DNA from: an uncultured Candidatus Saccharimonas sp.
GTDB lineage: Bacteria > Patescibacteriota > Saccharimonadia > Saccharimonadales > Saccharimonadaceae
Reading direction: 5' to 3'
Assembly (NCBI GenBank): GCA_964516285.1
Contig: CAZEWP010000001.1
Span: forward strand, 13,272 to 75,958
DNA length: 62,687 bases
The translations under genes and the position numbers were made by a program. Each line of letters opens with the position of its first letter. Within the stretch, counting starts at the first letter, position 1. The notes beneath the pieces were generated by a model, which worked only from the letters and a program-made list of their open reading frames with translations, searched no databases and was not told the DNA's origin. Positions 5,790 to 49,106 of this stretch are shown one piece after another.

Positions 5790-6569
5790 TTATAACACGA
5801 GCAACTGGTAAATCTTTTTCCAGTCTGAAATCGTTAAATTCTCAGCCCGACAATCAGGGTTAATACCTGACTCCAACAACGCTTTAATGATTGTATCTTT
5901 AGATAACCCTAAGCCAGTGGCTAAACTAGTTTTAATTTTTTGGCGCTTCTTAGAAAAACCAGCCTTAACTAAGCGAAAAAACCTTTCCTCATCTAGTTCA
6001 GCAATCAAGGACTGGCTTCTTGGCCTTAAGATTACCACCTGACTGTCTACTTTAGGTGGAGGGGTAAATAAACCAGCTGGCACCACCACCCCCAATTCCA
6101 CTTCAGCTCGCACCTGCACGCTGATTGACAGTAAAGAATGCTTCTGTTTAATCGCCACCAACCTTTCGGCGACTTCTTTCTGAACTAATAAAACAACTAG
6201 TTGCGGTTGGTCGGGGCTAGTCAACAGTTTTTGAATAATTAGACTAGTTAAATAATAAGGAATATTAGCCACTACTTTATAACCTGTCGGAAGTGTCGTT
6301 AAATCAAACTTTAAAATATCCTCATTCACCACCACTAAATCTTTGCCCGGAAATTGTCCAGGTAATTTTTCAGCTAAAGCCTTATCTAGCTCAACCGCCA
6401 CAACTCGCCGAGCTCTCTTTAACAAACGACTAGTTAAAGTTCCTAGACCAGGACCAATCTCTAAGACGGTTTCATCTTTTTGAAGCTCAGCATAATTAGC
6501 AATCTCTTCTAAAATAGCTGGATCTTTTAACCAATGTTGTCCTAAAGCTTTATTATTCTTAAGCGACAT
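5790..6569 (-). CDS. rsmA: 16S rRNA (adenine1518/1519-N6)-dimethyltransferase
   Basis: 259 aa. GQHWL ... VLEIGPGLGTLT is the SAM motif typical of KsgA/RsmA. Confidence 0.85.
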   Translation of the reverse strand: MSLKNNKALGQHWLKDPAILEEIANYAELQKDETVLEIGPGLGTLTSRLLKRARRVVAVELDKALAEKLPGQFPGKDLVVVNEDILKFDLTTLPTGYKVVANIPYYLTSLIIQKLLTSPDQPQLVVLLVQKEVAERLVAIKQKHSLLSISVQVRAEVELGVVVPAGLFTPPPKVDSQVVILRPRSQSLIAELDEERFFRLVKAGFSKKRQKIKTSLATGLGLSKDTIIKALLESGINPDCRAENLTISDWKKIYQLLVL

Positions 6570-6570
6570 C

Positions 6571-7881
6571 TTATTGATTATGAGTAGCTAAAATATCCCG
6601 AGCGTAACCAATCCTGGTTGACTCTCGACAGATACCACATCGTTCAAACTGATTCTGAAAAATCTGAACCACCTCAACTAAACTATTCGAATTCTTAATA
6701 CCATTTAAAACAGTTGGGTAGCTATTGTTTAATTCAAACATCAAAAAATCAAGTTGGACATAAATATTATCATAATTAGCCCACGACATTAAATTGTCCC
6801 GTCGGCCACCTGTCCACTGAGCAATCCCCAACCCTCCCGGAGTATCAGAAGTGTTAAAACGATGCTCTTGTTTTAGGTTGCCCATAATCCCAGCTGTTTG
6901 AATTGGCGTGAAACCATGTTCACGCAAATAGTCCCAAGTAATTTTCTCATTTTCTGAAGGTGTGGTGTATTTACCCTTAACTCCAACCGCCTCAATTTGA
7001 GAGACTGGCTGTTCTAAAATAACACTCGCGATTTCTCGACGATTAACCTCTATGCCGTTTTCCATTAAAATCTCATATGATACTTGTCTTGAACCTTTAA
7101 CGCCAGCTTTCTTAATTTCTTGATAGCCAACTGGTCGATCAGCATCTTCAATTTTATCTATCGCAAAATCAACCGCCTCCTCCACTGTCACCACCTGCTT
7201 GCCTTCACGCCAAATTTTTAAAGCCTGGCTACTAGACAACGACTCACCTAACTCCATTGAAAGTCGATCGTTACTTTCCAGCTTTAGATTTTTTTCTTTT
7301 AAGAAATCAGCCACGGTTGGGGCAAAAGTTCGCACCACACTTTGCCGACCGTAGAGTGTCAAATTAATCACCGACGCTCTTTCTATCTCTACAGTTAGAG
7401 CAATCCCATTTTGTAAACTATCATTAGCTTTAATTGTCGCCCGATCTTCTGAAGCCATTTCAAGACCAGCACTAGCAATAATCTGTTTAGCAGTTTGAAA
7501 AGCTGTCATCACCCTCAAACGAGTCTTACCATCAATAATGACAACTGGTCGAGCTCGATAAATATTTACCCGATAACTAGAAGCTACTAGTTCTTCATCC
7601 AGCGACGGCTCCACTACATCTTGTTGGTCAACAACAAGCCCAACTTTTTCAAAAGCCTGACGCAAAGTCTTAGCGGTGGTTAAAATAGTTGTCTCTGTCC
7701 CACGATCATAAATAGTTAAAAGCCGTTCGTTATGCGCCCCTGGGGTGGGATTATTTTTAGCCTTAGCCACTTGAAAGGTTGTCAAAATCGAAAAAACAAA
7801 CAGCAAAAAAAGGCTAGCTAATAAAACACTCTTAGCCACTAACCTCACAACCCTAATTTGATTATTTATATACTTATTCAT
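6571..7881 (-). CDS. Secreted cell-wall hydrolase-like protein (RpfB-like DUF348/G5 architecture with a C-terminal phage-tail-lysozyme-like domain)
   Basis: 436 aa with an N-terminal TM anchor and repeated DUF348-like segments, followed by a G5-like region. The C-terminus GIMGNLKQEH...GLGIAQWTGGRRDNL resembles the Phage_lysozyme2 family. Confidence 0.6.
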   Translation of the reverse strand: MNKYINNQIRVVRLVAKSVLLASLFLLFVFSILTTFQVAKAKNNPTPGAHNERLLTIYDRGTETTILTTAKTLRQAFEKVGLVVDQQDVVEPSLDEELVASSYRVNIYRARPVVIIDGKTRLRVMTAFQTAKQIIASAGLEMASEDRATIKANDSLQNGIALTVEIERASVINLTLYGRQSVVRTFAPTVADFLKEKNLKLESNDRLSMELGESLSSSQALKIWREGKQVVTVEEAVDFAIDKIEDADRPVGYQEIKKAGVKGSRQVSYEILMENGIEVNRREIASVILEQPVSQIEAVGVKGKYTTPSENEKITWDYLREHGFTPIQTAGIMGNLKQEHRFNTSDTPGGLGIAQWTGGRRDNLMSWANYDNIYVQLDFLMFELNNSYPTVLNGIKNSNSLVEVVQIFQNQFERCGICRESTRIGYARDILATHNQ

Positions 7882-13239: not shown

Positions 13240-13314
13240 TGGTGATCTCACCGGGAATCGAACCCGGATTGTCAGGATGAGAACCTGATGTCCTAACCGT
13301 TAGACGATGAGACC
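13240..13314 (-). tRNA. tRNA-Glu: tRNA-Glu (anticodon CUC), CCA encoded
   Basis: Folded by hand. Acceptor GGTCTCA/TGAGATC, anticodon arm TCAGG-TTCTCAT-CCTGA, T arm CCGGG-TTCGATT-CCCGG. Confidence 0.85.
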
Positions 13315-13408
13315 AACTAATTAAACTATAACAAATAAGCGCCTTTTTGTAAAAACAGCCCCTTGTAACTTAGTGCTTGTGTTTATTGATTGTCTATGGT
13401 TTAAAATA

Positions 13409-13437
13409 TTGACATTTTTATCTGTTTATGTTAAACT
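13409..13437 (+). promoter_or_regulatory. Sigma70-like promoter TTGACA-17 nt-TAAACT
   Basis: Read directly. It lies outside the left inverted repeat, about 190 nt upstream of the 13627 start codon, which implies a long leader. Confidence 0.5.
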
Positions 13438-13488
13438 TAAGCCATCAATCACTACTGGTGTGAGGCTGGAGTGAGCGAGGAACGTTAA

Positions 13489-13516
13489 CAAGTCAGATTA
13501 TTATAGTGCATGTCTG
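13489..13516. repeat. Left arm of a 28/30-bp inverted repeat bracketing the high-GC cassette
   Basis: caagtcagattattatagtgcatgtctg. Its reverse complement equals 14774-14803 except for a 2-nt (at) indel. Confidence 0.9.
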
Positions 13517-13626
13517 TTCGCGCCTAGGAACAGCGAATTATGGCTATACTCTCATTTATAGCTATAGTCCGCTGTTCCTGGAGTGTCCCACAGACAGCGA
13601 GAATTGGATGAAAGGAGGTGCGCTCA

Positions 13627-14730
13627 ATGCGCATCTCAGAAAAAAAATTGACTGGCAGAAGCCAGTCGATTATGGCCCTCGTGGCCAAAAAAAGACGCCA
13701 GATGGCGTCTTTGATCATGGCCCTAGTGGTCGTGGTCGGAATCGGTGGCGGGATTGCTTTATTCAGAAAGACCCCAACCACTACAGCCACCACAACCCAG
13801 CCAAGCCCTGCGACAGAGACCGTCACTCCGGATCCCAAGTTCCAAACGGTCCAGCATTTTGTGGCCGGCGCTAAAAACGCTGGCTGGTCACAAGACCAGT
13901 TGGCCGTAGAGTTTGTCAACAGCAATGCTGACAACTCCACGCCCGGAAACCAGGCGTTCTTGTCTAGTGGTGCTAAAACCACAACAGAACTTCTGGCGTG
14001 GCTCACTGGTAGTAGTCGAAGCGCCGAAGGCACTCGGTTATTAATAACCGAGTACACCGGCGCATCCGCCGGCGAGGTCCAAAACCCAGATTACTGGGTC
14101 GTGGCCCAAGCTAAGGCGGACTTCCGTTACACAGAGATGACTCTCTGGCGCAACGGAGCAATCCACACCCAAGCCGGCAAGGCCGGCAATGTTGGAGATA
14201 TCTTTTTTGCTTTCGTTCCTCCGCGGAATGAGAGCAAAATTGTGTATGTGCGAGGTGGATGTGCAAACCCCACCTTGAACGTTCCGACCCCCAACCAACC
14301 GACGCCGACCACGAGGCCGGCAACGACTCAGCCCCCAGTGGATGAGCCAGAGCCGACAACCCGTCCGTCCAAGCCCGGTGAGACGACCACCAGGCCGTCA
14401 ACCACCAAGCCAGAGCCGACCACAAGGCCAGCCACCACCCCGAAAGCCAAGGACCCCTCAAAAGATATCCTGGCCAATCCGAAGGTGGCGGATTGGAAGA
14501 AAAACGGCGGGGAGTTACTCCAAATCCTTTGGGATCTGGACGCTCCCAATGGCTATCAGCCAGCGCCTCGCGAAGAGGCAAAAGCGAAAGCCGACGCCAT
14601 CAATAGAGCCAACAAGGGGCTCGAGGAACAGCACAGTAGTGCCGTAGCCTCGGCCCCAGTCGTCGACGACAACCAGGGACACGTTGCCGTCACTAAGCCG
14701 AGCGACCCAAATTGGTCGCCCTTCGGCTAA
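13627..14730 (+). CDS. Membrane-anchored secreted protein with Pro/Thr-rich repeat linker (high-GC, probably horizontally acquired)
   Basis: The ATG at 13627 is preceded by AAAGGAGG with an 8-nt spacer; the track starts at GTG 13618. The protein has an N-terminal TM helix (LIMALVVVVGIGGGIALF), an unknown globular domain and EPTTRP-type repeats. The segment is ~60% GC, which produces spurious ORFs in all frames. Confidence 0.75.
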   Translation: MRISEKKLTGRSQSIMALVAKKRRQMASLIMALVVVVGIGGGIALFRKTPTTTATTTQPSPATETVTPDPKFQTVQHFVAGAKNAGWSQDQLAVEFVNSNADNSTPGNQAFLSSGAKTTTELLAWLTGSSRSAEGTRLLITEYTGASAGEVQNPDYWVVAQAKADFRYTEMTLWRNGAIHTQAGKAGNVGDIFFAFVPPRNESKIVYVRGGCANPTLNVPTPNQPTPTTRPATTQPPVDEPEPTTRPSKPGETTTRPSTTKPEPTTRPATTPKAKDPSKDILANPKVADWKKNGGELLQILWDLDAPNGYQPAPREEAKAKADAINRANKGLEEQHSSAVASAPVVDDNQGHVAVTKPSDPNWSPFG

Positions 14731-14739
14731 CCACGCAAG

Positions 14740-14767
14740 GGGGGTGACTGCATCAGCAGTCACCCCC
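14740..14767 (+). terminator. 12-bp perfect GC-rich hairpin (gggggtgactgc-atca-gcagtcaccccc) without a U-tract
   Basis: Read directly, 10 nt after the stop codon. Confidence 0.6.
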
Positions 14768-14773
14768 ACACCC

Positions 14774-14803
14774 CAGACATGCACATTATAATAATCTGAC
14801 TTG
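14774..14803. repeat. Right arm of the inverted repeat bracketing the high-GC cassette
   Basis: cagacatgcacattataataatctgacttg, the reverse-complement partner of 13489-13516. Confidence 0.9.
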
Positions 14804-14871
14804 AAAACAACCTTAACAATTCGTTTAACAAACCGTATCTTTTTAATAATTTAAAAAAGGAGGATTTAAAA

Positions 14872-16113
14872 ATGAGTTTATTTTCATATTTTAAAAACAG
14901 CCCTAAACGAATTCTTGGTTTCGTAGTTATGCTTTTAGCTAGCATTGCCCTACCAACCACGATTCTAGCTTGGGGACCAATCAGACCAACCTACACCATT
15001 GAAAAGCCAGCTCCCCATGTTACTTTTAACTCTATCACTAATAACCCAAATTATGGTGATGAGCGAAACTTTGTAACTATCAAGGACGCTAGCAATCAAA
15101 ACGCTGGTGGCTGGGTTGACCAAATTACTGTTCAAGACGGCAAAGAATATTATGTTCGCATGTATGTTCACAACAATGCCGCCGAAAATCTAAACCTAGT
15201 AGCCAACAATGTAACTGCTAAGTTTAATGTTCCAACCTATAATGCGAAAAAAGTTCAAATTGATGGTTATCTATCCGCTGACAATGCCCAACCCAAAGAG
15301 ATTTGGGATCAAGCAGTTTTCGTCAGCGATCAAACCTTTAATTTAAGCTATGTAGCTGGTTCTACTACCTACACCAACAATATCTTCACTGACGGCACCG
15401 CCTTAACAGATGAGGTTATCGGTAACGGTGTCAAACTAGGTTACGAAAAACTTGACGGTAAAATCCCTGGTTGTTTCCAATTTAGCGGTCTAGTTATCTT
15501 TAAGGTTAAAGCCACCACTACTGACTTTAGTCTACAAAAAACTGTCCGCCTAACTGATTCAACCGATCGAGTTTTTAAAGAAAGCGTTAAAGCTAAACCA
15601 GGCGATAAGGTAGACTTCCAAATCTACTTTAAAAACACCGGTGGTACTCAACTTAAAAATGTTGTTATTAAAGACAAACTACCAGCTGGTTTAGAATATG
15701 TCGCTGGTTCATCTAAGTTATTCAACTCTGATGGACTTAAAGACATAGTAGATGGAATCACCACAACCGGTGTTAACATCGGTGGCTATATGCCAAATGG
15801 TGATGCCTATCTAATGTTTACCGCTAAAGTTGTTGCTAACGACAAACTCCCAGTTTGTGGGTTGAATAAACTTACTAACAAAGCCGAAGCTGTCACTAGT
15901 AACGGCACCAAAGAAGATACGGCCGAGGTCTTAGTCGATCGCTATTGTGAACCCGACAAAGAACCTGAACCACCAGTTGAACCTGAACCACCAGTAATTC
16001 CAGAAGAATTACCTGTCACTGGTCCAAGTGATATTGTTTCAGCCTTCTTAGGCCTTGGGTCTCTTGTTACTAGCGCTGGTTATTACCTTAATAGCCGACG
16101 CAACAAGCGTTAA
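14872..16113 (+). CDS. LPXTG-anchored surface protein with DUF11-like repeat domain
   Basis: 413 aa. RBS AAGGAGG, a signal peptide, the KPGDKVDFQIYFKNTGGTQLKNVVIKDKLPAGLEYV DUF11-like segment and an EPEPPV tandem repeat. The C-terminus has LPVTG, a hydrophobic helix and an RRNKR tail. Confidence 0.85.
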   Translation: MSLFSYFKNSPKRILGFVVMLLASIALPTTILAWGPIRPTYTIEKPAPHVTFNSITNNPNYGDERNFVTIKDASNQNAGGWVDQITVQDGKEYYVRMYVHNNAAENLNLVANNVTAKFNVPTYNAKKVQIDGYLSADNAQPKEIWDQAVFVSDQTFNLSYVAGSTTYTNNIFTDGTALTDEVIGNGVKLGYEKLDGKIPGCFQFSGLVIFKVKATTTDFSLQKTVRLTDSTDRVFKESVKAKPGDKVDFQIYFKNTGGTQLKNVVIKDKLPAGLEYVAGSSKLFNSDGLKDIVDGITTTGVNIGGYMPNGDAYLMFTAKVVANDKLPVCGLNKLTNKAEAVTSNGTKEDTAEVLVDRYCEPDKEPEPPVEPEPPVIPEELPVTGPSDIVSAFLGLGSLVTSAGYYLNSRRNKR

Positions 16114-16212: not shown

Positions 16213-18363
16213 TTATTTAACTGGCAACATAAAACCAAAGGTGCTACCCTTGCCCTCGATTGTTTCAAAAATAATCTTACCATCATGAGCATAAATAACC
16301 TTTTTAGCTAAATACAGCCCCACCCCTGAGCCACTCGGCCGTTGTTTTTTAGCGTTACTAGCCCTGTAAAACTTAGTAAACAACTCTTTTTGCTCAACTT
16401 TTGGCACACCAATTCCGCTATCTTGAACCGTAAAAGACACCCATTCACTATCACAGGCTAAACCAATTTTTATCTCACTCTTAGGGTGGGAATAAAAAAT
16501 AGCATTATCTATAAAGTTCATCACCACCTGACGAATCTTATTTTCATCAAGCTCTAACGGCGGCACCTCATCATGACAAGCACAGCTTAATTTAATCTCC
16601 TTTTTTTGAGCCACCATCAACAAACCATCAACCTCAGTCTTAACTAGCTCCATTAAATTAACCGTAGTTCGATCAACCACAAACTTACCTGTTTGCAACC
16701 TAGAAACATCAAGAAAATCATTAACCAACCGCACCATCTTATCGCTACTGATATAGGCATCAGCTAAAATCTTTTTCTGCTGACTACTTATCTTACCAGC
16801 ATCACCATCCGCTAACATACTAATATACCCCTTAATACTAGTTAACGGTGTTCTTAGTTGATGTGAAGCCATACTAATAAAATCGTCCTTAGCTTTATCT
16901 AGCTTTCTTAACATTGCGTTCTTAACCCTTAATTCTTTAATAGCCTCATCTATGCGCTGACGTAAAGTAATATTAAAATCTTGAATTTCTTCAACAGCTA
17001 AAGCATTCTGAATTGCAATTATTAAAGCGTTAGCAATGACGTTTAAAACCTCTAAATCACGGCTAACATAGTTCGACGACATCTTTTCACCAAGACACAA
17101 AAAGCCAATTAAACTACCTTTGCTAGTTAGTGGTAAGACTACTCCAATTTTATTTGTTAATAAAATTTGTTTAATTTCGTCTGTTTCTTCTAATGCTATT
17201 GTTGCTATAGCCCCAGCTTGCTTAGAAAAATAACCACTAATCTTCTCAATGTCTGAATCTACTAATTTCCTATAATTATCTGATCCCACTAATACATATT
17301 CTTTGTTTGGCAAATAAACAACGAAAAAAGCTTGCTCTGCTTTTAGGGTTACTGTTACTTCTTTAACTACTTTTTTTAAGAGCTCCCTCAAATCAGTTGT
17401 CACAGCTAAAGCCTGATTAATCCGAGCAAAAAACTCTTCTGTATTATAGTTGTCTCTATAAAATATTTTATTAGTTACTTTATCAAAAAAGCGCTTTAAT
17501 GGTTGGAATAATAAAACTAAAACCAAGCTAACTATAACATTAGCTATTAACTCTGCTGGGGTTGAACTACCCAGTTTTAAAAAACTAGATAAAACAGCCA
17601 TAGAGCCAATATAGATTCCAGCCATAGTGGCAAGCGATAATGAATAAGTAGCGCTTCGCACAATCGCCATCCGCACATCAAACAAACCACCCTTAAGGAT
17701 ACCGTAAGAAGTTACCCCAACAAAAATTATAGAAAAAAATGGCGTAATAGTATCTACTATCTTAGCCATATTTCCCTTAAACATAGGAGCGATAAAAATC
17801 ATTATCGCTATAGAAGCTGCTGTTAACCCAAAACCAAATAATATATAAGAAATATTGTTTTTATTAGTTTTATTTTTTTTCTTGTAATATAAAAACTTAA
17901 TTATTAATGTAAGGATACCTAAAAAAGCTAATAAATATATAGACCCAAAATACAACCAAGCAATTTCCCCGTGCACCGGTATGGCTGTACCCATAACAAC
18001 ATCAACATTTTTTACTATTTTATCTGTAAAAAATATAACGGGAAAAAGACTTATAATAAAACAGGCTATAAGTAAACAAAATGGTACCAATATTTTTCTA
18101 AATAAAAAGACTGGATAAGTTAAAATAAAAACAAAAAATAAAAACATACCTCCAACCCCAAAAATATCAGTTATTTTGACAGCTGTTAATGGCTGTAACA
18201 CATAATTCGATAAAGCAAATGACACCACCCATCCTGATAAGAAAAAAACTAATATAAAAAAAATTTTATTGTAAAGTTTGCGATGGTTACTTAACAAAAC
18301 AATAATTGACATAAACAACATAACTATCGCCAAAAGTATACTCATGATTACTATAACATTCAT
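16213..18363 (-). CDS. Sensor histidine kinase: about 9 TM helices (HisKA_7TM-like), GAF-like domain, HisKA, HATPase_c
   Basis: 716 aa. H-box SHQLRTPLTSIKGY and G-boxes DSGIGV / GSGVGL. The N-terminal half is polytopic. It overlaps the upstream methyltransferase gene by 4 nt. Confidence 0.85.
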   Translation of the reverse strand: MNVIVIMSILLAIVMLFMSIIVLLSNHRKLYNKIFFILVFFLSGWVVSFALSNYVLQPLTAVKITDIFGVGGMFLFFVFILTYPVFLFRKILVPFCLLIACFIISLFPVIFFTDKIVKNVDVVMGTAIPVHGEIAWLYFGSIYLLAFLGILTLIIKFLYYKKKNKTNKNNISYILFGFGLTAASIAIMIFIAPMFKGNMAKIVDTITPFFSIIFVGVTSYGILKGGLFDVRMAIVRSATYSLSLATMAGIYIGSMAVLSSFLKLGSSTPAELIANVIVSLVLVLLFQPLKRFFDKVTNKIFYRDNYNTEEFFARINQALAVTTDLRELLKKVVKEVTVTLKAEQAFFVVYLPNKEYVLVGSDNYRKLVDSDIEKISGYFSKQAGAIATIALEETDEIKQILLTNKIGVVLPLTSKGSLIGFLCLGEKMSSNYVSRDLEVLNVIANALIIAIQNALAVEEIQDFNITLRQRIDEAIKELRVKNAMLRKLDKAKDDFISMASHQLRTPLTSIKGYISMLADGDAGKISSQQKKILADAYISSDKMVRLVNDFLDVSRLQTGKFVVDRTTVNLMELVKTEVDGLLMVAQKKEIKLSCACHDEVPPLELDENKIRQVVMNFIDNAIFYSHPKSEIKIGLACDSEWVSFTVQDSGIGVPKVEQKELFTKFYRASNAKKQRPSGSGVGLYLAKKVIYAHDGKIIFETIEGKGSTFGFMLPVK

Positions 18364-19094
18364 CTGATATGCTCCATAATAAACAGTCGGTTTTGATTAG
18401 CTTGTATATCCTCCATATGTATAATCCTTAATTTAGACAACTTTGCAATTTTCTTTATTTCTATAAGACTATCATACTGTATTATCCCTCTTTTCGACAT
18501 TATATAGATTTTAAATTGACCCCAAAGCATATTAAAATATTTGGGAAGTCTTTTAAACATCTTGAGTATTACACAAATTTTTTGCATTAAGTTTAAACCA
18601 GACAAATGAGCATTAATAAATTTCACACTATTTGTTTCTTTATTTGGCTTAGGGTTTACTAGTATAATTTTAGCTTTTTGATCAGATAATAATCTGCGCA
18701 CAGAAATTAAAAACTTTTTTTTGTCATTAATAAAAAACAATACATTAACAATAATTATTACATCAAATTTTTTATTTATATTTAGATTATTTAAATCCAT
18801 TTTTATAAAATTAACCCTATCTCCATGAACAGATGAAGCTATTTTTAACATCTCAGAAGATGCATCAACAGCATAAATTCCACCTAAAAAATTATTCTTT
18901 AGAATTTCAGCCTCCAACAACCCACTACCACAGCCCAAATCAAGAATATTTCTAGGATTATAACTCAATGCCATTTTAGCAATTTTTGTATATTTTTCTC
19001 TATGTGATCTTGAATCTGAAGACACAAAATGAAAAGACCTTGCCATTTTATCCCAAACTGTTTTCTTTATTATTTCTTTATTTCTTTTTCTCAT
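18360..19094 (-). CDS. Class I SAM-dependent methyltransferase
   Basis: 244 aa. Motif I ILDLGCGSGLL. Confidence 0.75.
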   Translation of the reverse strand: MRKRNKEIIKKTVWDKMARSFHFVSSDSRSHREKYTKIAKMALSYNPRNILDLGCGSGLLEAEILKNNFLGGIYAVDASSEMLKIASSVHGDRVNFIKMDLNNLNINKKFDVIIIVNVLFFINDKKKFLISVRRLLSDQKAKIILVNPKPNKETNSVKFINAHLSGLNLMQKICVILKMFKRLPKYFNMLWGQFKIYIMSKRGIIQYDSLIEIKKIAKLSKLRIIHMEDIQANQNRLFIMEHIR

Positions 19095-19100
19095 AAAAAC

Positions 19101-19901
19101 TTATTTATTATAGATAACAAATTTTTTATTATAAAAATCCATAAGAGTTACAGCAGGAGCTGCCAATAATTTTTTATCTTTTTTAATATAAAAACTCACT
19201 AAATCTTCTAGCAATACTAGGTATATAGCAATCGCATGGCACCAACTAGGAAATACTTTTATTTTTCCCTTTATAACATCCCTGACAATTTTATTATTCG
19301 CTTCAACTGGTAAAATTGGAAATTGAATTTTAATAATCTTTTCCATAGAAAATTTACCATCTTCAAAAAATAAATCACCATAATGTGGGCCATCAGGATC
19401 TATATTCATCGAACTAAGCATACTACCAGAAATCTGAGCTGTCATAACCCATTTTTTCTGTTTTCTTGCAGCTTCTTGTAATTCTATTGATCTGTCAATA
19501 GAAAAAAATTCTATAGCATCTATTACAACATCACAACCCTCTATAAAACTATCCACATTATCTTTATTGATTCCGTAATCCCATACTTTTAATTTTATAT
19601 TAGGATTTATTCTCATTAATTCATCCGCAACAGCCAACGCCTTGTTTTTTCCAATAGTATCAATATAACAACCAAATTGTCTATTAATATTTGATATCTC
19701 AAAAACTTCTGGATCACATATATTAATATTTTCTACACCTAGTCTGACAAGCATGTGCGCCATTGACCCACCTAATCCACCAGCACCTGCAATAGCTACT
19801 TTCAGATTTTTTATTCTTTCTTGCTCCTTTTGAGTAAAAATACCAATATTTCTTTGAAACATTTCTTCATATTTATATTTCATATCTTTATTTTTAACCA
19901 T
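19101..19901 (-). CDS. ThiF/MoeB/HesA-family E1-like adenylyltransferase
   Basis: 266 aa. Nucleotide-binding loop VAIAGAGGLGGSMAHMLVRLGV followed by DPEVFEISNINRQ. Confidence 0.75.
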   Translation of the reverse strand: MVKNKDMKYKYEEMFQRNIGIFTQKEQERIKNLKVAIAGAGGLGGSMAHMLVRLGVENINICDPEVFEISNINRQFGCYIDTIGKNKALAVADELMRINPNIKLKVWDYGINKDNVDSFIEGCDVVIDAIEFFSIDRSIELQEAARKQKKWVMTAQISGSMLSSMNIDPDGPHYGDLFFEDGKFSMEKIIKIQFPILPVEANNKIVRDVIKGKIKVFPSWCHAIAIYLVLLEDLVSFYIKKDKKLLAAPAVTLMDFYNKKFVIYNK

Positions 19902-19919
19902 AGAATTAAACCTTTCTTT

Positions 19920-20849
19920 CTAAATAAATAATAACATAAATCTATAAAATTTTAATTTTATAGGAACTGTTAAAGATCCTAGGTAATATTTTGTTCCACC
20001 AATTCTAATTAAAAAAAGTGATAAAGGCCAATATTTAATCTTTAAACGATTAAAAAGGTTTTCGTCTATACAAGCTACTGTAATTTTTTTGTTTTTAATA
20101 CAATAGCTAATAACCATTCTATATAGCCCTTTTGCAATTTTTTGACCAGGAAGAGCAGCTAAACTTCCAATCTCAACGACTCTTTCGCCCTCTTTATACA
20201 ATCTTCTGCTTACTTTATTTTTAATATCAAAATTATTAATAACCGGCAAGCCTAGCTCTGAGTTATTAATTATCCTGATAACTCCAACTATTTTATCTTG
20301 CTCCTTAGCAATAAAATATTTTGAATAACGATTAAACTTATCTTTCTGTATGACATCCTTTTGATTCTCAGACAAATATCCGACCTCAACATATCTATTA
20401 AAAAGAAAATTTCTAGCTTTCAAAATTTCCTCGCCCCGAGCTTCCTTATAGATAATAGTTTTTTTATAAGCCTTATTGCCCGTCTTCCATATTATTAAAA
20501 ATGTGGTCACAAACAACCAAACTACAACTAAAACATATAACCACCACGGTAAATTTTTACCAAATATAAAAATATAAAAATAGGGAGCAACCCAGCCAAA
20601 ACGATTAATCACCAACCCTTTAATAAAACCTTCTTCCGATATAAGTTTAGTTATGTCTATTTTTTTTGTTCTAACATATTCTCTTTTGTAATACTGATAT
20701 CCACTCTTTATCATTAGGTATTCTCCAAAATAATAAATTGGTATCGTTATTAAATATAAACAAATATAAAATATTGGGTTTACATTATAAACATCTACAG
20801 CTTGATTAAAAAGATGACTAATAAAATTCATATATTCTATATTATACAT
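19920..20849 (-). CDS. Membrane-anchored GNAT-fold N-acyltransferase (FeeM / N-acyl amino acid synthase-like)
   Basis: 309 aa with 3-4 N-terminal TM helices. The C-terminal region (DKIVGVIRII...LPV...VVEIGSLAALPG) resembles the autoinducer-synthase-like GNAT subfamily. The call is from memory of the family pattern. Confidence 0.5.
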   Translation of the reverse strand: MYNIEYMNFISHLFNQAVDVYNVNPIFYICLYLITIPIYYFGEYLMIKSGYQYYKREYVRTKKIDITKLISEEGFIKGLVINRFGWVAPYFYIFIFGKNLPWWLYVLVVVWLFVTTFLIIWKTGNKAYKKTIIYKEARGEEILKARNFLFNRYVEVGYLSENQKDVIQKDKFNRYSKYFIAKEQDKIVGVIRIINNSELGLPVINNFDIKNKVSRRLYKEGERVVEIGSLAALPGQKIAKGLYRMVISYCIKNKKITVACIDENLFNRLKIKYWPLSLFLIRIGGTKYYLGSLTVPIKLKFYRFMLLFI

Positions 20850-20886
20850 AAGTAGTGTTGTTTTAATATAAAACTTATCTATGTTC

Positions 20887-21417
20887 TTATTTAACTATAG
20901 CTTTAATAATCGCAGGGCTTTCTAAGCATTTATTTATTACTTCACTGAAAGATACTTTACGGCTAATGAGCTCTTCGACTTGATAGGTTTCTTTTTCTTG
21001 ATAACTACATATTTTATAATATTCACGAATCCTTTTTCCAAACTCATAACCATTATCTATATCTTTTGACACTTCTGGTGGTAGTTGAAGAGGTGAGCTT
21101 AAGTTATAAATCCAGTGATCACCGTAAAATATAGATGCACAACAAATTAAATTGTATATTCCATCAATCTTCTTTAAGCCACCCTCTAACCCAATAGCAA
21201 ATAAAATATTATCTTTATGGACGTCTTTAAAAGCATTTTTTGCTCGATTTTTAGCACCAGTGATAGTTTCTTTCTCTGTAGTTGGCTGATCTGACACACC
21301 AGAATCTACATCACATTTTATAATTGAAAATTTATAACCTTTTTTATCTAGACATTCTGCTAAGATATTATATTTATCTTGACTGGTTGACCCAATAGCT
21401 GTTTTTAAAATTTCCAT
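20887..21417 (-). CDS. DUF84 / YjjX-like non-canonical purine NTP phosphatase
   Basis: 176 aa. DSGVSDQPTTEKETITGAKNRAKNA matches the YjjX signature (SGV.EQP..ET..GA.NR). Confidence 0.7.
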   Translation of the reverse strand: MEILKTAIGSTSQDKYNILAECLDKKGYKFSIIKCDVDSGVSDQPTTEKETITGAKNRAKNAFKDVHKDNILFAIGLEGGLKKIDGIYNLICCASIFYGDHWIYNLSSPLQLPPEVSKDIDNGYEFGKRIREYYKICSYQEKETYQVEELISRKVSFSEVINKCLESPAIIKAIVK

Positions 21418-21468
21418 AATTAAACTCTCCTTATGTCATACATTCTTTTTTAGTTAAAGTTATAATAG

Positions 21469-21500
21469 AAAAAATCCCTACCATAAAATACAGTAGGGAT
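21469..21500 (-). terminator. Rho-independent terminator/attenuator downstream of the small peptide ORF
   Basis: On the minus strand: atccctac-loop-gtagggat followed by tttttt. It lies between the peptide ORF and the DUF84 gene. Confidence 0.65.
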
Positions 21501-21594
21501 AGTTTAGTTTTTAACAGAGAGGTTACTTTAATTTAGTTTGATAATATTATCTTTAACTAGTTTTTATAAATACCACCTTACATTTGTATTGTAA

Positions 21595-21744
21595 TTACAC
21601 TTTTTCTTTAAAAGAACTACCACAACAATTTTTACCAGACATAAATATAACTTTAGTAATTGATTCACCAGAGGGTAGAGTTTCTTCTTTGCGAACAGGT
21701 TCCTGAAGATTTTTTCTCTTAACTCGTGTTTGAAGAACTTTCAA
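21595..21744 (-). CDS. Unannotated 49-aa peptide, candidate RiPP precursor: MKVLQTRVKRKNLQEPVRKEETLPSGESITKVIFMSGKNCCGSSFKEKV
   Basis: Translated by hand. A TTG start is preceded by AAAGGAG with a 9-nt spacer, and the codon before the TTG is a stop. It sits 46 nt downstream of the radical SAM/SPASM gene and is followed by a terminator. It is below the ORF-track length cutoff. Confidence 0.6.
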   Translation of the reverse strand: MKVLQTRVKRKNLQEPVRKEETLPSGESITKVIFMSGKNCCGSSFKEKV

Positions 21745-21790
21745 TTAAAACTACTCCTTTCTGTAAGATTTTTTATATCATCTAGAATTA

Positions 21791-23107
21791 TTATTCTAGA
21801 TTTAAACATTTATAATATTTTTGAAGAATATAACTTGTTGTGTCAAATAATATATCAGAACACACCTTCTTGCCAATAAATCTTGCCTTTCGACACCCTC
21901 CTTTACAAATTGGTAGAATCTTACAATTCAAACAATCATTATCATTAAACGGATTAGTATTAATAAAACGATTATACCTAGAGAAATCCTTTTGTGATGC
22001 AAAACCAAAACGCACATTGCCAACAGCTTCCTCTTTTTTCATGCTTTGAGAACACATAAACAAATCTCCGTCTTGATCAATCATGAAAGATTTATCAAAA
22101 TCACATTCGCAAAAATTATAAGATATACCTTCATCAAAAGAATTTGTGATAAAACCCATTTCTTCTGCTCTTTGATAAAGAAATGAAATATTAGCTATGG
22201 GTGATTGTTTTTTTATCTTTTCAGAGAACATTTTTCCAGGACTTCTTCCGTCAGTATGTTCATAAACCAAACGAAAAATTAAAACACAACGTTCTTTAAT
22301 AGCATTAGGTATTCTTTCTAACATAGTTGGTATACTGGCATAATTATCATCAGTTATGTTAACTCTAAGGATTGATGCAACATCAGATTTAGTTTTTTTA
22401 CAATAGTTATTAAAATTTCTAATAATAGTATCAAAAGTCCCATGCCCAGTATTTTTTATAAAGCGGTATGTATTATGAATATCTCTGTCACCATCCAAAG
22501 TTACTTGAACACTTTTAATGTGTAGTTTTTCGATCTGATTAACAAAATCTTCATCAAGCAATACTCCATTTGTAACAAGACTAGCCACATATTCAAATTT
22601 GTATTTATTACGCAATACATCAATCTTCTTTGTTAGGCGTTGAATAGTATCTTTCGAAAGTAACGGCTCACCACCATACCAAGTTAAATAGAGTGATTTA
22701 ATGCCAATAAGCTGACTTTCTAACCATATAATATAATCTTCTTCAGTTTGCCGACTCATAAATTTACCTGTTTTGGATTCAAAACAGTAGGGACAATCAC
22801 AGTTACAAGCAAGATTCGGTAAAATAGTATGTCGTAATATACTTGACGAATACAAACTCCTACTCCATTCAAGTTTAAAAAATTCAAGCTCATCCATACC
22901 ATCATCAATAATAAATAATTGTTCTTTTAATTGGCTAATCATTTTAAGGCTCTCTGCATCAGACACCACAAAATTTTTTTCTATTAATCGCTGATACAAA
23001 ACAACTTCTTCAAGAGATAGCTCAACTATATTTTTATATAGGGTGTTATAGATTATTCCACGACCATCGGGTAAATTAACTAGAAAGTTGTAATATGAAA
23101 GCTTCAA
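21791..23107 (-). CDS. Radical SAM / SPASM-domain peptide maturase (anSME-like family)
   Basis: CNCDCPYC contains CX3CX2C. The C-terminal SPASM motif is CLNCKILPICKGGC (CX2CX5CX3C) with upstream Cys/Gly elements. The ~100-aa N-terminal extension could be an RRE. The preferred start is TTG 23107, with RBS AAGGAGAGG 6 nt upstream; the track start is 23140. Confidence 0.85.
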   Translation of the reverse strand: MKLSYYNFLVNLPDGRGIIYNTLYKNIVELSLEEVVLYQRLIEKNFVVSDAESLKMISQLKEQLFIIDDGMDELEFFKLEWSRSLYSSSILRHTILPNLACNCDCPYCFESKTGKFMSRQTEEDYIIWLESQLIGIKSLYLTWYGGEPLLSKDTIQRLTKKIDVLRNKYKFEYVASLVTNGVLLDEDFVNQIEKLHIKSVQVTLDGDRDIHNTYRFIKNTGHGTFDTIIRNFNNYCKKTKSDVASILRVNITDDNYASIPTMLERIPNAIKERCVLIFRLVYEHTDGRSPGKMFSEKIKKQSPIANISFLYQRAEEMGFITNSFDEGISYNFCECDFDKSFMIDQDGDLFMCSQSMKKEEAVGNVRFGFASQKDFSRYNRFINTNPFNDNDCLNCKILPICKGGCRKARFIGKKVCSDILFDTTSYILQKYYKCLNLE

Positions 23108-23166
23108 CTTTATCCTCTCCTTTTTGTTAAAAATCAACAAACCTTCTTTCGGGTTTATCTATACTA

Positions 23167-23196
23167 GTTATACACCTATAACAGTAACCTTGTCAA
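23167..23196 (-). promoter_or_regulatory. Promoter TTGACA-18 nt-TATAAC for the radical SAM operon
   Basis: Read on the minus strand. Its -35 box overlaps the -35 box of the divergent plus-strand promoter. Confidence 0.5.
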
Positions 23197-23218
23197 ACAT
23201 ATGTAGAGACTATATAAT
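23190..23218 (+). promoter_or_regulatory. Promoter TTGTCA-17 nt-TATAAT for the nucleoside phosphorylase gene
   Basis: Read directly. Confidence 0.55.
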
Positions 23219-23276
23219 ATATTTTGTTAGATATAACTTTTTTATAAAACACCTAATAGAAAGCGTTAGATAGTGT

Positions 23277-24011
23277 ATGATAACCTTTGACCCTAATAAA
23301 CAAGCCATTTTTGATCCACCAACTTTAAATTTAGACAGGCAGGTGGATAAAGCAATTTTAGTTTTTGATGATGAAGTTTGGGAAGATTATATTATTCCTA
23401 ATAAAGATTTAGTTAGTTTTGATGTTAAAAATTTAAAAGGCCGAGTTTTCAATACTTTCCGTTATCTAGAACATCACGGGCAAAACGTTTTATTAGTCTA
23501 TCCATCGACCGGAGGGCCAGCTTCAGCTGGTGACCTAGAACTTTTGATAGCTAGTGGTGTTAATAAAATAGTTGCTTTTGGAACTTGTGGAGCGATGGAT
23601 AAAAATATCCCCAAAAACACGATTATTTTACCAACTAGCGCTATTCGAGAAGAAGGAGTTAGCTATCATTATTTAGAACCTACTGATGAGATAGCTCAAG
23701 AGCAAAATTCAATTAACGCTATGAAAACAGTTTTTATTAAAAAAGGTGTCGATTATTTAGCTGGTAAAGTTTGGACAACTGATGCAGTTTATCGCGAAAC
23801 AGTTGGTAAAAAAGAAGCTTTTAAATCAAAGGGCTGTTTAGCAGTTGATATGGAACTGGCTTCTCTATTAGCGGTGGCTAAATTTCGAGCTATTAAATTT
23901 GCTCAGTTTTTGATCACGGATGATAATATTGATGGTGTCAATAAAAATAGCAGAGATAGAAATTCTAAAGAATTATTAAATCTTGCACTTGAAATAGTTA
24001 AATTATTATAA
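23277..24011 (+). CDS. PNP/UDP-family nucleoside phosphorylase
   Basis: 244 aa. STGGPASAG, AFGTCGAMD and VDMELASL are motifs typical of the uridine/purine nucleoside phosphorylase family. Confidence 0.75.
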   Translation: MITFDPNKQAIFDPPTLNLDRQVDKAILVFDDEVWEDYIIPNKDLVSFDVKNLKGRVFNTFRYLEHHGQNVLLVYPSTGGPASAGDLELLIASGVNKIVAFGTCGAMDKNIPKNTIILPTSAIREEGVSYHYLEPTDEIAQEQNSINAMKTVFIKKGVDYLAGKVWTTDAVYRETVGKKEAFKSKGCLAVDMELASLLAVAKFRAIKFAQFLITDDNIDGVNKNSRDRNSKELLNLALEIVKLL

Positions 24012-24289
24012 CTGAATTAAAAAACTGTAATTTTTTACATACATCGTGAGATAAAGATTTTGTGCTAAATAATAACTATAAAACACGATTACAGATTTTA
24101 AGCCGTGGATTAATTATTGTTTTTTAAATACTTTCCAATAATTGTGATATCCACCATATCAGTATTTAACACTAAAAACTATAGTTAAAGACGCCATAAA
24201 AAATCTTTAACTTTTTAAATTAAGTTATAAAATTCAACATTTACCCATGATTGTGTTACTATAAATTTATTACTAAATAAGTATTTATA

Positions 24290-25861
24290 ATGAAAAACCA
24301 AAAAACACCGAAACCCCAATCACTTCATCATCTATTTGAACAAAAGCGTAAAGAATTTGGAGATCGCCCCTTTATTTGGGATAAATGGCATAGTGAGGAT
24401 TTTACCCCGCATAGCTATAAAGAGATTATTACTGATATTCAAATCGTAGCTAATTATTTATTATTAGCAAAATATAAAGACCAAAGAGTTGTTTTGTTCT
24501 CTGAGAATAGTTATTACTGGTATGTCTGTAATATGGCGATTACTGGCTATGTTGGAATTTCGGTGGCGGCTAATAAAGATTGGCAAGAATATGATTTAGA
24601 AAATGCTTTAAAAGTTGTTGGAGCAAAATTAGTAATTTATTCAGCTAAAAACGCTGAAACAATTGAAGAGCTTCGGCGTAAGTATAAGAATATTGTTTTT
24701 ATTTCTATGGATAAAATTGCGGATATTATTAAACACAAAAGAGAAGAATCACCAGTGGTCAATAAAAAACTACTAGCCGACAATGCCCAAGCTGGCGATA
24801 AGCTATGTCAAATTATATTCACAACTGGATCTAGTGGCCTACCTAAAGCTGTGCCGATTTCCTTTAATAATATGGAACCTTGTTATGACATGATGCTTAG
24901 TCGGCTTCCTTTTACGGCTAACGATCGACACTACCTGTTTTTGCCACTATCTCATGTCTTCGGTAATATGGCGGCCTTAGTTTCTTTCCGTCAGGGACAT
25001 AAACTATATCTCTGCTCAGATACTAAAGCTGTTAAAGAAGAACTTAAAGTTGCCAAGCCAACCATTGTTTGTGGTGTGCCTTTATTTTTAAACAGAATCT
25101 ATGATGGCCTAAATGAATCAACCGTTCAAACCATTAATCGCTTGGCTAAACTTACCACTCCACTGGCTAAAATTGGAATTAATGTCCGTAAAGTTGTTTT
25201 TAAAAAACTCTACAAAGCTTTTGGCGGTAATCTAAAGTATTTCATTTGCGGAGCAGCCCCTTTAAACCCTGATATCAAGCAACTTTTTTTGAATGTCGGG
25301 ATTGATTTTGTTGAGGCTTACGGTATGAGCGAGACATGTGCTTTTATCACTATGGAAAAAAGAGGTCAACAAATTGCTAATTCAGTGGGAACTCCTTATG
25401 ATGCTGTTGATTGCAAGATTATTGATAAAGATAAAAATGGGGTTGGCGAAGTAGTTATTAAAGGGCCAAATGTTTTTGCCGGCTATTACAAACAAGGAAA
25501 AATTGATAAATCAGCTTTTGATAAAAAAGGCTATTTTCACACTGGTGATTTAGGTTATTTTGATAAGCAAGGCCGACTCTTTTTAACTGGTCGCAAAAAA
25601 CGCTTAATCCTAACCTCAAATGGAGAAAATGTTTCACCTGATGAATTAGAGGGCTTAATTGCTAAGCACCTAAAAGCTAAAAATATTAAAGTTTTTGCCA
25701 CTGACGATGGTATTGCCACCATTATTTATCCATTAGAAAATGATGGGCGAGCTAATGATGAGTTTAAAGCTATTATTGATGAACTTAATTTAGATTTGCC
25801 AAAATTTAAACAAATTAGAGTAGTTAACATTAATCGCAGTAGCGAGATGAGTGTTAAATAA
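24290..25861 (+). CDS. AMP-forming acyl-CoA ligase (long-chain fatty acid-CoA ligase-like)
   Basis: 523 aa. AMP-binding core IFTTGSSGLPKAV, YGMSET, GYFHTGDLGYFD and GRKKRLI. Confidence 0.85.
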   Translation: MKNQKTPKPQSLHHLFEQKRKEFGDRPFIWDKWHSEDFTPHSYKEIITDIQIVANYLLLAKYKDQRVVLFSENSYYWYVCNMAITGYVGISVAANKDWQEYDLENALKVVGAKLVIYSAKNAETIEELRRKYKNIVFISMDKIADIIKHKREESPVVNKKLLADNAQAGDKLCQIIFTTGSSGLPKAVPISFNNMEPCYDMMLSRLPFTANDRHYLFLPLSHVFGNMAALVSFRQGHKLYLCSDTKAVKEELKVAKPTIVCGVPLFLNRIYDGLNESTVQTINRLAKLTTPLAKIGINVRKVVFKKLYKAFGGNLKYFICGAAPLNPDIKQLFLNVGIDFVEAYGMSETCAFITMEKRGQQIANSVGTPYDAVDCKIIDKDKNGVGEVVIKGPNVFAGYYKQGKIDKSAFDKKGYFHTGDLGYFDKQGRLFLTGRKKRLILTSNGENVSPDELEGLIAKHLKAKNIKVFATDDGIATIIYPLENDGRANDEFKAIIDELNLDLPKFKQIRVVNINRSSEMSVK

Positions 25862-25889
25862 TTAGTAAGCTAAATTTTACATAGGCGGT

Positions 25890-26797: not shown

Positions 26798-26927
26798 TAA
26801 AAAAGTTTAAGATGATTATTCTGGTAAGCTTCTTATGCTTGATACTTCCCTGTTTTTGGGTATGATTAGAGCATCACGTAAATCTTTTCATGCGTGATAT
26901 GTTCTTTTCAGGAAAGGAGCCTCCGTT

Positions 26928-27368: not shown

Positions 27369-27377
27369 AACACCCCT

Positions 27378-27402
27378 GCCCTGCTTTTTAGCAGGGCTTT
27401 TT
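27378..27402 (+). terminator. Rho-independent terminator gccctgc-loop-gcagggc plus ttttt
   Basis: Read directly. Confidence 0.8.
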
Positions 27403-27404
27403 AC

Positions 27405-28424: not shown

Positions 28425-28479
28425 AATGTTCCTGCTTAAATGACTAGTAATTATTGTTTTTTTATTATACCATTGAACT

Positions 28480-28854: not shown

Positions 28855-28863
28855 GATAAATCT

Positions 28864-29613: not shown

Positions 29614-29633
29614 CTTCTTCTCTAATAAAATAA

Positions 29634-31636: not shown

Positions 31637-31746
31637 AACCCCTCCTTTTATCTTTAAAATAGCCTATGTAGACACTTTTGTCAACAAATAACCATAGCTT
31701 AATAATCATAGTTAGACCCGGACGGCTTATTATTTAAAAATAAAAG

Positions 31747-32550: not shown

Positions 32551-32665
32551 CTTTTAAAATCATAGCAAATAATCCTCTAAACAATAAGTCTTGTTTAAAA
32601 AACTTGTCTAAACTACAATAATGGTAAGCGTGAGCTTATTAAAATAATTTTATAAAGGAGAAAAG

Positions 32666-46012: not shown

Positions 46013-49106
<3,094 letters not shown>

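Follow-up and report, generated by a model that had tools for sequence, protein, structure and literature searches.

The two inverted repeats at positions 13489-13516 and 14774-14803 of the window, the whole stretch of 62,687 nucleotides analysed here, are the 5' and 3' strands of one conserved RNA helix predicted to close a 1.3-kb message, and base covariation places this helix on the predicted plus-strand transcript from the promoter at 13409-13437. The first-pass annotation had proposed that the repeats bound a transposase-less cassette acquired from a high-GC donor, that they delimit an invertible segment or, ranked last, that they pair as 5' and 3' UTRs. The evidence backs only the last of these, for which the pairing is supported by covariation, and the interpretation overall is partly supported. 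As judged from that covariation, the locus is a new conserved RNA element in Saccharibacteria, a phylum in which cis-acting RNA biology is to our knowledge almost unknown.

The long-range helix would take its 5' strand from the left arm, CAAGTCAGATTATTATAGTGCATGTCTG (13489-13516, plus strand), and its 3' strand from the right arm, CAGACATGCAC[AT]TATAATAATCTGACTTG (14774-14803, plus strand). The right arm is the reverse complement of the left arm plus two additional bases (28/30 paired), in agreement with the near-exact repeats and 2-nt indel described earlier. The helix is arranged as 17 bp, a 2-nt bulge on the 3' strand (AT, 14785-14786) and 11 bp. The 17-mer arm core occurs at only two sites in the window where 0.02 are expected from shuffles, and no other 17-mer of the window has an exact inverted partner at a distance of 50-3000 nt, with 0 such pairs found in twenty shuffles. 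No other clean long-range inverted repeats and no further arm copies were found in the window, and the arm sequence scanned against viral contigs gave 0 matches. The duplex has a predicted energy of -39.7 kcal/mol, and all 28 arm pairs are present in the MFE structure of the full transcript with a mean probability of 0.99. The arms themselves are AT-rich (33-36% GC). Both are adjoined by the boxA-like CNTTAACAA, found 10 times in the window versus 5.4 expected; because the motif is not rare in the window, a connection with rRNA antitermination is regarded as no more than a lead.

The gene, promoter, arms, leader and gene order were found at the same place in ten Saccharibacteria lineages (the window with L001 and L002, L007, L013, L014, L018, L023, L024, L025, L016 and L017), the contigs of L016 and L017 including the 3' arm only. 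The shared order is TIM, pyruvate kinase, tRNA-Glu, the gene, a DUF11 protein and a histidine kinase, with the flanking DUF11 protein 59-75% identical to that of the window. Conservation extends as a single unit from the leader outside the arm to the 5' UTR on its inner side, and all related loci with sufficient flanking sequence are occupied.

Substitutions within the arms follow the pattern of an RNA helix. In an alignment of nine lineages, 97.6% of the cells in arm columns were paired compared with 94.2 ± 0.8% after shuffling, a value reached in 0 of 500 shuffles, and sliding the partner arm by 1-3 columns lowered pairing to 24-38%. Two-sided changes were present at five pairs (C-G/U-A, U-A/C-G twice, U-A/A-U and U-A/G-C) among these nine lineages, and the tenth, L025, supplied an extra compensatory change from C-G to U-A at 13514/14776. 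One further pair shows the series G-C, G·U and A-U. The one-sided changes within the helices are all G·U (13 cells, at least 5 events), valid on the plus strand only, and the sole A·C cell is a frayed helix end. The bulge comprises 2-4 nt in other lineages and is replaced in L024 by a 21-nt inserted hairpin; the variable regions of RNA helices evolve by such bulge expansion. The duplex thus has both the length (about two helical turns or more) and the covariation on the transcribed strand characteristic of a long-range UTR duplex. Among the 28 arm pairs, 20 are invariant across lineages with saturated synonymous sites, which exceeds the needs of pairing; therefore, a sequence-specific partner or a second role is likely.

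The open reading frame and its homologues identify a single CDS between the arms (13627-14730, plus strand), whose 367-aa product is membrane-anchored and belongs to an uncharacterised family of Saccharibacteria. The dN/dS of 0.18 indicates that 13627-14730 is a genuine coding gene. The ribosome-binding site AAAGGAGG (13611-13618, plus strand) and an N-terminal membrane helix are likewise consistent with the one real TM-anchored gene recognized inside the repeats by the first-pass annotation. Also correctly recognized were the adjacent tRNA-Glu, located at 13240-13314 on the minus strand, and the LPXTG surface-protein neighbour, a downstream DUF11/CLIPPER protein with an LPVTG sorting signal (14872-16113, plus strand). 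The core domain modelled by AF2 (residues 70-225) has a pLDDT of 95-98. A Foldseek search of this core against PDB and BFVD returned no match at E ≤ 0.001, and searches of the 367-aa protein against Pfam, PHROGs and PDB sequences returned none. The family includes 191 cluster representatives, and every member with a readable genomic context sits in a Saccharibacteria-type locus. A further protein search with a profile of 51 sequences, over a capped set of candidates, extended this very little. The most distant member read, L026, has a different gene context and no recognisable upstream arm, on a contig that stops at the stop codon.

The promoter, correctly noted earlier as a good one just outside the left repeat, is TTGACA-17-TAAACT with TG ahead of the -10 element (13409-13437, plus strand; promoter score 10/12), with a transcription start predicted near 13444. 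The form TTGACA-17-TAnnnT is kept in L001, L002, L007, L013, L014, L018, L024 and L025. Downstream of this conserved promoter, both arms precede the next gene, and no intrinsic terminator intervenes between the two. A predicted 5'-proximal stem-loop (13449-13474, plus strand) displays GUGAGG; GGTGTGAGG is common to all lineages and the adjoining stem sequence varies among them, the stem having been assessed by eye without a formal count. The stem-loop is followed, 8 nt 5' of the left arm, by the Shine-Dalgarno-like GAGGA (13477-13481, plus strand). ATG, GTG and TTG are absent from the next 16 nt, so that the motif is start-codon-less and, as a Shine-Dalgarno-like sequence in a 5' UTR with no start codon following, conforms in sequence to a STAB-SD. 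GGAGGA or GAGGA directly precedes CGTTAAC/T in the window, L001-L010, L012, L013, L018 and L023, with the variants GGAGGC in L024, GGACGA in the L014 lineage and AGAGG in L025. Part of the GAGGA motif pairs, in the MFE fold, with a CCUU that follows the right arm. Inside the left arm lies a long 5'-UTR hairpin (13523-13582, plus strand) with 23-nt arms and a conserved AGCG...CGCUG base, for which RNAalifold identified compensatory changes at 8 of 17 pairs in 7 lineages. The leader folded by itself yields z = -6.25.

At the other end of the message, a GC-rich hairpin just past the stop codon (14739-14767, plus strand), with a 12-bp perfect stem and no U-tract, is a candidate barrier to 3' exonucleases. 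Hairpins of differing sequence occupy the same post-stop place in L001, L007, L013, L014, L016, L023, L024 and L025. The sequence scan found no terminator-like site on the plus strand between the arms or after the 3' hairpin, and the DUF11 gene and the helix are not separated by a terminator. The L023 contig (SRR29243425; 1644 nt) extends from the 5' stem-loop to 7 nt beyond the right arm and may therefore be RNA-derived. Most lineages keep a further conserved element beyond the right arm, TTAACAATTC (14813-14841, plus strand; TTAACA-17-TATCTT, promoter score 9/12), which may be a weak promoter of the gene that follows or, alternatively, belong to the RNA. Searches with Rfam 15 reached the gathering score for tRNAs alone, and its covariance models at E up to 10 gave nothing credible in 13320-14900, which covers the leader, arms and 3' region.

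The left-arm GUCUG can pair with a local AGAC/CAGAC or with the distant right arm, which raises the alternative of a translational or conditional switch. The long-range helix would then be one of its states, and the switch would govern translation or decay according to a signal or to the binding of a protein, such as a GGA-binding regulator of GUGAGG and GGAGGA. When the leader is folded alone, 13507-13516 and 13589-13598 pair around the long hairpin, the local GUCU...AGAC alternative is present in L007, L013 and L014, a short hairpin (GGUGCGC / GCGCAUC) is predicted to hold the start region with its start codon, and the very high conservation of the arm sequence suggests a specific binding partner. 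However, the alternative pairing is short, the arm lies ~100 nt from the ribosome-binding site with no overlap, and no known riboswitch or leader family in Rfam was matched. A switch is for these reasons an unlikely function of the helix, although one deserving consideration.

The composition of the gene bears on whether it was imported. The GC content is 56.6% between the arms and 57.0% in the CDS, compared with 37.7% and 38.2% in the 1-kb flanks and 37.0% in the whole window, confirming the GC-rich segment reported earlier. The Pro/Thr repeats (14284-14438), which had been described as AT-rich, are at 68.4% GC the most GC-rich stretch of the gene, and that description was wrong. The GC3 of the gene is 63%, against a median of 31% and a next highest value of 39% among 40 ORFs of at least 200 aa. 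The gene also diverges faster than its neighbour, with dS about three times higher (0.92-1.03 versus 0.26-0.35); the divergence is restricted to 13690-14735 between flanks 90-100% identical, and L005 joins a window-type leader to an L002-type gene. These properties are those expected of an imported GC-rich gene, either a high-GC cassette or an allele that Saccharibacteria repeatedly exchange through homologous recombination within conserved flanks, GC-biased gene conversion raising its GC. The family and the paired arms are nevertheless native to the lineage. Across lineages GC3 is graded (32, 33, 46, 47, 53, 56, 59, 59, 60, 63, 65 and 74%), with native-GC copies (32-33%) in two lineages, and it reaches 74% in genomes of about 37% GC. 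Values of 63-74% persist in lineages where synonymous divergence is saturated, and therefore a continuing force is needed rather than a past import. No outside homologue, whether actinobacterial or other, was identified, and the locus in the window has no transposase and no extra arm copies. The cassette from a high-GC, possibly actinobacterial, donor proposed earlier is not supported, the locus being syntenic in ten lineages that include native-GC members, and the repeat copies and empty site that might have revealed insertion did not appear, only the two arms being present in the window and the related loci all being occupied. Allele exchange may add to the fast divergence but leaves the arms unexplained, and import of either kind is judged quite improbable. 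High GC accompanies RNA folding and does not mark a recent foreign insertion; in this lineage it may be a feature of the folded RNA, or of frequent recombination at a fast-evolving locus.

The base pairing predicted inside the helix far exceeds what the protein sequence and codon usage of the message would demand. Compared with synonymous-codon shuffles, the mRNA of the window gene gave z = -10.2 and those of 7 relatives, native-GC lineages included, -4.5 to -9.1, versus +0.55 to -1.9 for 16 control genes. Seven 200-nt segments spanning 13401 to 14800 all gave z ≤ -3.4, about the 5th percentile of the window (-3.58), and the signal ends at the right arm. The predicted helices within the CDS are weakly conserved among relatives (z of 0.4-2.0), with double changes kept at best in 17 of 36 cases versus 9.0 ± 2.9, indicating that the internal folding is generic and not one fixed architecture. 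A single conserved fold of the coding part was considered and rejected, the MFE helices of the window being kept barely above matched random pairs. The downstream DUF11 gene mRNA is also over-folded, with a synonymous-shuffle z of -5.9 and values of -3.6 to -5.2 in relatives. The folding signature was observed as well in two unannotated genes of the window (35789-36334 and 49991-50482); being shared by these and the DUF11 gene, it may be a wider expression strategy of Saccharibacteria.

The excess folding could instead be a by-product of template switching that perfects quasi-palindromes in DNA, and not selected RNA structure. Folding z-scores are alike on both strands, the CDS holds perfect local palindromes that are imperfect in close relatives (for example the 22-nt palindrome at 14032-14053), specific helices are poorly conserved and substitution rates are raised, all as this process would produce. 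It leaves unexplained, however, the restriction to this unit in every lineage and the stop at the right arm, and the RNA-type covariation of the long-range helix and the 5'-UTR hairpin speaks against it, making template switching a very unlikely source of the structure. A diversity-generating retroelement was also rejected, with no RT domain in window ORFs of at least 150 aa and no second copy of a gene segment in the window.

The proposal that the arms are site-specific recombinase sites at which the whole gene inverts, varying in phase off the outside promoter, draws on inverted repeats flanking a surface-protein gene with the promoter outside, on the compensatory changes that recombination-homogenised arms would also yield and on two large serine recombinase genes in the window (47238-49103 and 60419-62266), but it is scarcely credible given that the inverted order was found in 0 of 22 assembled contigs drawn from many samples, a count in which rare variants could be missed, that no recombinase or invertase of the window lies within about 30 kb of the locus, that the two recombinases, large integrase-type enzymes encoded 33 and 46 kb off next to tRNA genes and a Mob relaxase, are absent from the 21-kb context of L007, that the arms always differ by the bulge (a 21-nt insertion in L024), that their one-sided changes are G·U pairs of the plus strand only, and that the leader beyond the arm is conserved as a unit with the 5' UTR within. 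Cassette and inversion both fail because sister genomes share the GC content, no heterogeneity of orientation was seen among the contigs and the window has no extra copies of the repeat.

Together with the folded message for an envelope protein, the long-range helix probably constitutes an architecture for mRNA processing and stabilisation, be it an RNase III-type stalk or a clamp proof against exonucleases, a function suggested by the anatomy of the transcript. The helix, the 5' stem-loop, the start-codon-less GGAGGA and the post-stop GC hairpin would act jointly as a device for end definition and stabilisation. By one route, RNase III would cut the long duplex and separate the message from RNA that reads on into the DUF11 gene, with both message ends remaining paired after cutting; no RNase III signature was found in the 62-kb window, from a genome of ~1 Mb, or in L007. 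By a second route, the duplex would block 5' and 3' exonucleases together with nearby endonuclease sites. Either would result in a long-lived, high-output mRNA for the gene. It can also be entertained, with considerable reservation, that the message belongs to an "armoured" class of mRNA sealed end to end, in which synonymous sites are selected for near-full base pairing. Such an mRNA might have an exceptional lifetime in an ultra-small cell or, alternatively, a further function, as an RNA or between cells.

The combination of a GC island, inverted repeats and a tRNA gene mimics a mobile insertion, here around a native gene with RNA probably under structural selection, and calls for caution in calling islands in genomes of candidate phyla. 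An orthologue that is hyper-folded at GC3 values from 32% to 74% offers a natural experiment on the drivers of local GC content in bacteria, the graded values posing the question of selection on RNA folding versus biased gene conversion. Saccharibacteria are now genetically tractable, and the paired arms, the GGAGGA element and the 3' hairpin could serve as stabilising parts for expression constructs.

Several known systems resemble parts of this architecture. In rRNA operons, sequences flanking 16S and 23S form the stems cut by RNase III. Such stalks share with the present locus a conserved helix of ~20-30 bp, with strands more than 1 kb apart, that closes a folded, GC-enriched RNA in an AT-rich genome, whereas the present helix encloses a translated mRNA. 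Pairing of the 5' and 3' ends also occurs in hok mRNA, where the 5' tac and 3' fbi elements produce a compact, long-lived, closed molecule; that mRNA, a toxin message of ~400 nt, becomes active on 3' trimming and is under the control of an antisense RNA, whereas no toxin or antisense partner is apparent here. [quoted passage not shown] In contrast, ~100 nt separate the arm described here from the ribosome-binding site downstream of it, and the features around it suggest stabilisation. The cry mRNA of B. thuringiensis has a 5' STAB-SD and a 3' positive retroregulator hairpin that prolong its life in Gram-positive bacteria (PMC4113751), and the present locus likewise combines a non-initiating Shine-Dalgarno-like sequence, placed in its 5' UTR, with a predicted stable hairpin at the 3' end, although the cry elements act separately on each end with no end-to-end helix. 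[quoted passage not shown] The likeness lies in the long-range UTR-UTR pairing, with no sequence similarity between the two loci. The helix of the present locus differs in having 28 bp with a conserved bulge, in its sequence conservation over many lineages and in enclosing a hyper-structured, GC-enriched CDS of 1.1 kb.

The inverted repeat around the gene encoding the 367-aa protein (13627-14730) was verified, the left arm (13489-13516) being the reverse complement of the right arm (14774-14803) save for 2 extra bases in the latter. The 17-nt arm core had no further copy anywhere in the window (0.02 expected from shuffles), and the arms were the sole exact inverted 17-mer pair ≤3 kb apart in 62.7 kb, none having arisen in 20 shuffles. 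The GC island also stood, with 56.6% GC between the arms versus 37.7% and 38.2% in the flanking 1 kb and 37.0% for the whole window. The third-codon-position GC (GC3) of the gene was 63%, the 40 long ORFs having a median of 31% and a next highest value of 39%. The promoter (TTGACA-17-TAAACT), the tRNA-Glu and the LPXTG surface-protein neighbour, a downstream DUF11/CLIPPER protein with LPVTG, were present as described in the first-pass annotation. The Pro/Thr repeats, which had been called AT-rich, were found to have 68.4% GC, more than any other part of it.

The arms were found in every related contig with enough flank, and covariation was evaluated in a 9-lineage alignment of both arms. Standard pairs occupied 97.6% of the cells versus 94.2±0.8 in shuffles, with 0 of 500 shuffles matching, and sliding the partner arm by 1-3 columns left 24-38% of cells paired. 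Five pairs (11 cells) were changed on both sides, and an additional C-G to U-A exchange was present in contig L025. The pair 13492/14800 is G-C in the window, G·U in five lineages and A-U in lineage L018; more U·G or G·U pairs occurred in L018, L007 and L024, the last with three within a 10-bp helix. Since these wobbles are A·C mismatches on the other strand, the pairing is valid only with the + strand folded; the lone + strand A·C is at the helix end that frays. The right-arm bulge of 2-4 nt was constant in position in all lineages, and in L024 it is a 21-nt insertion folding into its own small hairpin. When the predicted transcript (13444-14871) was folded, 28 of 28 pairs fell in the minimum-energy structure, with a mean probability of 0.99. 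The invariance of 20 of the 28 pairs suggests a putative sequence-specific partner. An RNA helix between the arms, clamping the ~1.3-kb message, is well supported; the arm covariation and strand-specific wobbles favour 5'/3' UTR pairing, the explanation ranked last in the first-pass annotation. The arms were also proposed to bound an invertible DNA segment, a reading that was rejected since none of 22 contigs had the inverted arrangement and no recombinase was encoded within ~30 kb of the arms; together with the RNA-type behaviour of the arms, these results make DNA inversion unlikely.

Further elements accompany the helix. A 5'-proximal stem-loop (13449-13474) presents a conserved GUGAGG, and a Shine-Dalgarno-like GAGGA/GGAGGA with no start codon following (13477-13481) lies 8 nt 5' of the left arm. 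Inside the clamp, a long hairpin (13523-13582), 8 of whose 17 pairs have compensatory changes, is followed on its 3' side by the true ribosome-binding site. Directly after the stop codon is a GC-rich hairpin with no U-tract (14739-14767); each lineage examined had such a hairpin, differing in sequence. The transcript is likely to read through into the DUF11 gene, since no terminator-like site was found between the two genes on the + strand. The sequences CGTTAACAA (13483-13491) and CCTTAACAA (14811-14819), which lie just outside the arms, left and right respectively, resemble the rRNA-operon boxA core CTTTAACAA; such motifs are not rare, 10 being present in the window versus 5.4 expected. Contig L005 joins the window-type leader AGCGAGGAACG (~156-171) to an L002-type gene, while the other contigs with that gene type (L002-L004, L006) carry AATGAGGAACG in the leader, which hints at between-strain recombination within the leader. 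The 1644-nt Logan contig L023 (SRR29243425; 1-1644) starts inside the 5' stem-loop and ends 7 nt beyond the right arm; since these ends approximate those of the predicted transcript, the contig might be derived from RNA.

The enclosed message was itself strongly folded. Relative to synonymous-codon shuffles preserving protein and codon usage, the minimum free energy of the window gene was -465.6 versus -372.7±9.1 kcal/mol (z = -10.2, negative values being more folded). Corresponding z values for the orthologues were -9.1 (L017), -8.4 (L014), -7.9 (L023), -7.0 (L007) and -6.9 (L016), with -7.8 and -4.5 for the native-GC genes of L013 and L018. The DUF11 gene yielded -3.6 to -5.9 in four lineages (window, 14872-16113; L007, L013 and L014), and 16 other window genes yielded +0.55 to -1.9. 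This hyper-structured DUF11/CLIPPER gene downstream of the clamp has a normal composition (GC3 24-33%). In 200-nt windows with dinucleotide shuffles, z ranged from -1.8 to -8.1 over 13400-14799, all but one value being ≤-2.6, and was back near -1.5 at the right arm. Each of the seven windows within the clamp scored ≤-3.4, the window-wide median being -0.46 and the 5th percentile -3.58. Two genes with no Pfam domain, encoding 181 aa (35789-36334, - strand) and 163 aa (49991-50482, + strand), had synonymous-shuffle z values of -6.3 and -5.5, and neither interval matched Rfam.

The dN/dS of 0.18 marks the family gene as genuinely protein-coding and subject to purifying selection, but its evolution is much faster than that of the DUF11 neighbour, the protein identities to the window being 77% versus 97% in L001, 48% versus 75% in L007 and 33% versus 65% in L014, with dS of 0.92-1.03 versus 0.26-0.35. 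The divergent zone (13690-14735) is within the coding region past the conserved cytoplasmic N-terminus and therefore does not start at the arms. Orthologue GC3 was graded by lineage (32, 33, 46, 47, 53, 56, 59, 59, 60, 63, 65 and 74%), that of the DUF11 gene being 24-42%. GC3 was still 63-74% in lineages with saturated synonymous divergence, so some ongoing force must be keeping it high. The candidates are selection favouring a more stable fold and, for a locus that recombines, GC-biased conversion. Particular helices within the message were weakly conserved among relatives; thus selection, if that is the cause, would favour being folded and not one fixed fold.

A word-indexed search recovered only six relatives, and an exhaustive profile search 191 cluster representatives of 300-500 aa, none with a Pfam domain. 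Contigs from ten lineages, where flanks exist, had the order TIM, (PGK), pyruvate kinase, tRNA-Glu, promoter, family gene, DUF11 protein and GAF-histidine kinase. For another family member, P0040, the same downstream order was read from its gene table alone. The family gene has native composition in L013 (GC3 33%) and L018 (GC3 32%). In both, an extra small ORF of ~115-127 aa (L013, 2233-2578; L018, 3599-3982) lies upstream of it inside the clamp, which is therefore able to hold two genes; their family protein has a multi-helix N-terminus. In L024 alone among the lineages, an IS200-type Y1 transposase gene (6498-7127) lies between the DUF11 and histidine kinase genes, an arrangement shared by another contig that encodes the same protein. 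These comparisons indicate a native gene in a conserved position. The proposed recent cassette from a high-GC donor is ruled out by this shared synteny and the native-GC orthologues.

From its N-terminus, the 367-aa protein comprises a membrane helix, a domain modelled with high confidence (residues 70-225, pLDDT 95-98), a Pro/Thr linker and, at the C-terminus, a conserved segment. Neither its fold nor its sequence matched any known structure. Since its gene adjoins that of a sortase-type surface protein and the window also encodes a sortase, it is probably an envelope protein.

Elsewhere in the window, a candidate integrated mobile element (44696-49755; 25-30% GC) bounded by tRNA-His (44696-44772) and tRNA-Gly (49681-49755) encodes a Mob_Pre relaxase (46013-47311) and a large serine recombinase (47238-49103). 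A second Resolvase-domain protein of 615 aa (60419-62266, - strand) is directly beside tRNA-Pro (60354-60430), and this segment (60354-62266) may mark another integrative element running off the window. An island at ~17000-33000 (26-34% GC versus ~39% elsewhere) encodes a methyltransferase, ThiF, an FeeM-like N-acyl synthase, a radical SAM enzyme, an AMP-binding enzyme and a sortase.

We infer that the promoter, long-range helix, accessory RNA elements and pervasive folding would act together in setting the message ends and shielding them. Duplexes of this type, 28 bp long with an asymmetric bulge, are classical RNase III substrates. Cleavage of the duplex by RNase III would free the message from DUF11 read-through, its ends remaining paired; alternatively, the duplex would block exonucleases and nearby endonuclease sites. 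The start-codon-less GGAGGA is similar to STAB-SD, which blocks RNase J1 (PMC4113751), and 5'/3' UTR duplexes of icaR mRNA are able to recruit RNase III (PMC3868564). Overall, the locus is described as a hyper-structured, end-clamped mRNA conserved across Saccharibacteria, a new variation on known 5'/3'-UTR and processing-stalk mechanisms.
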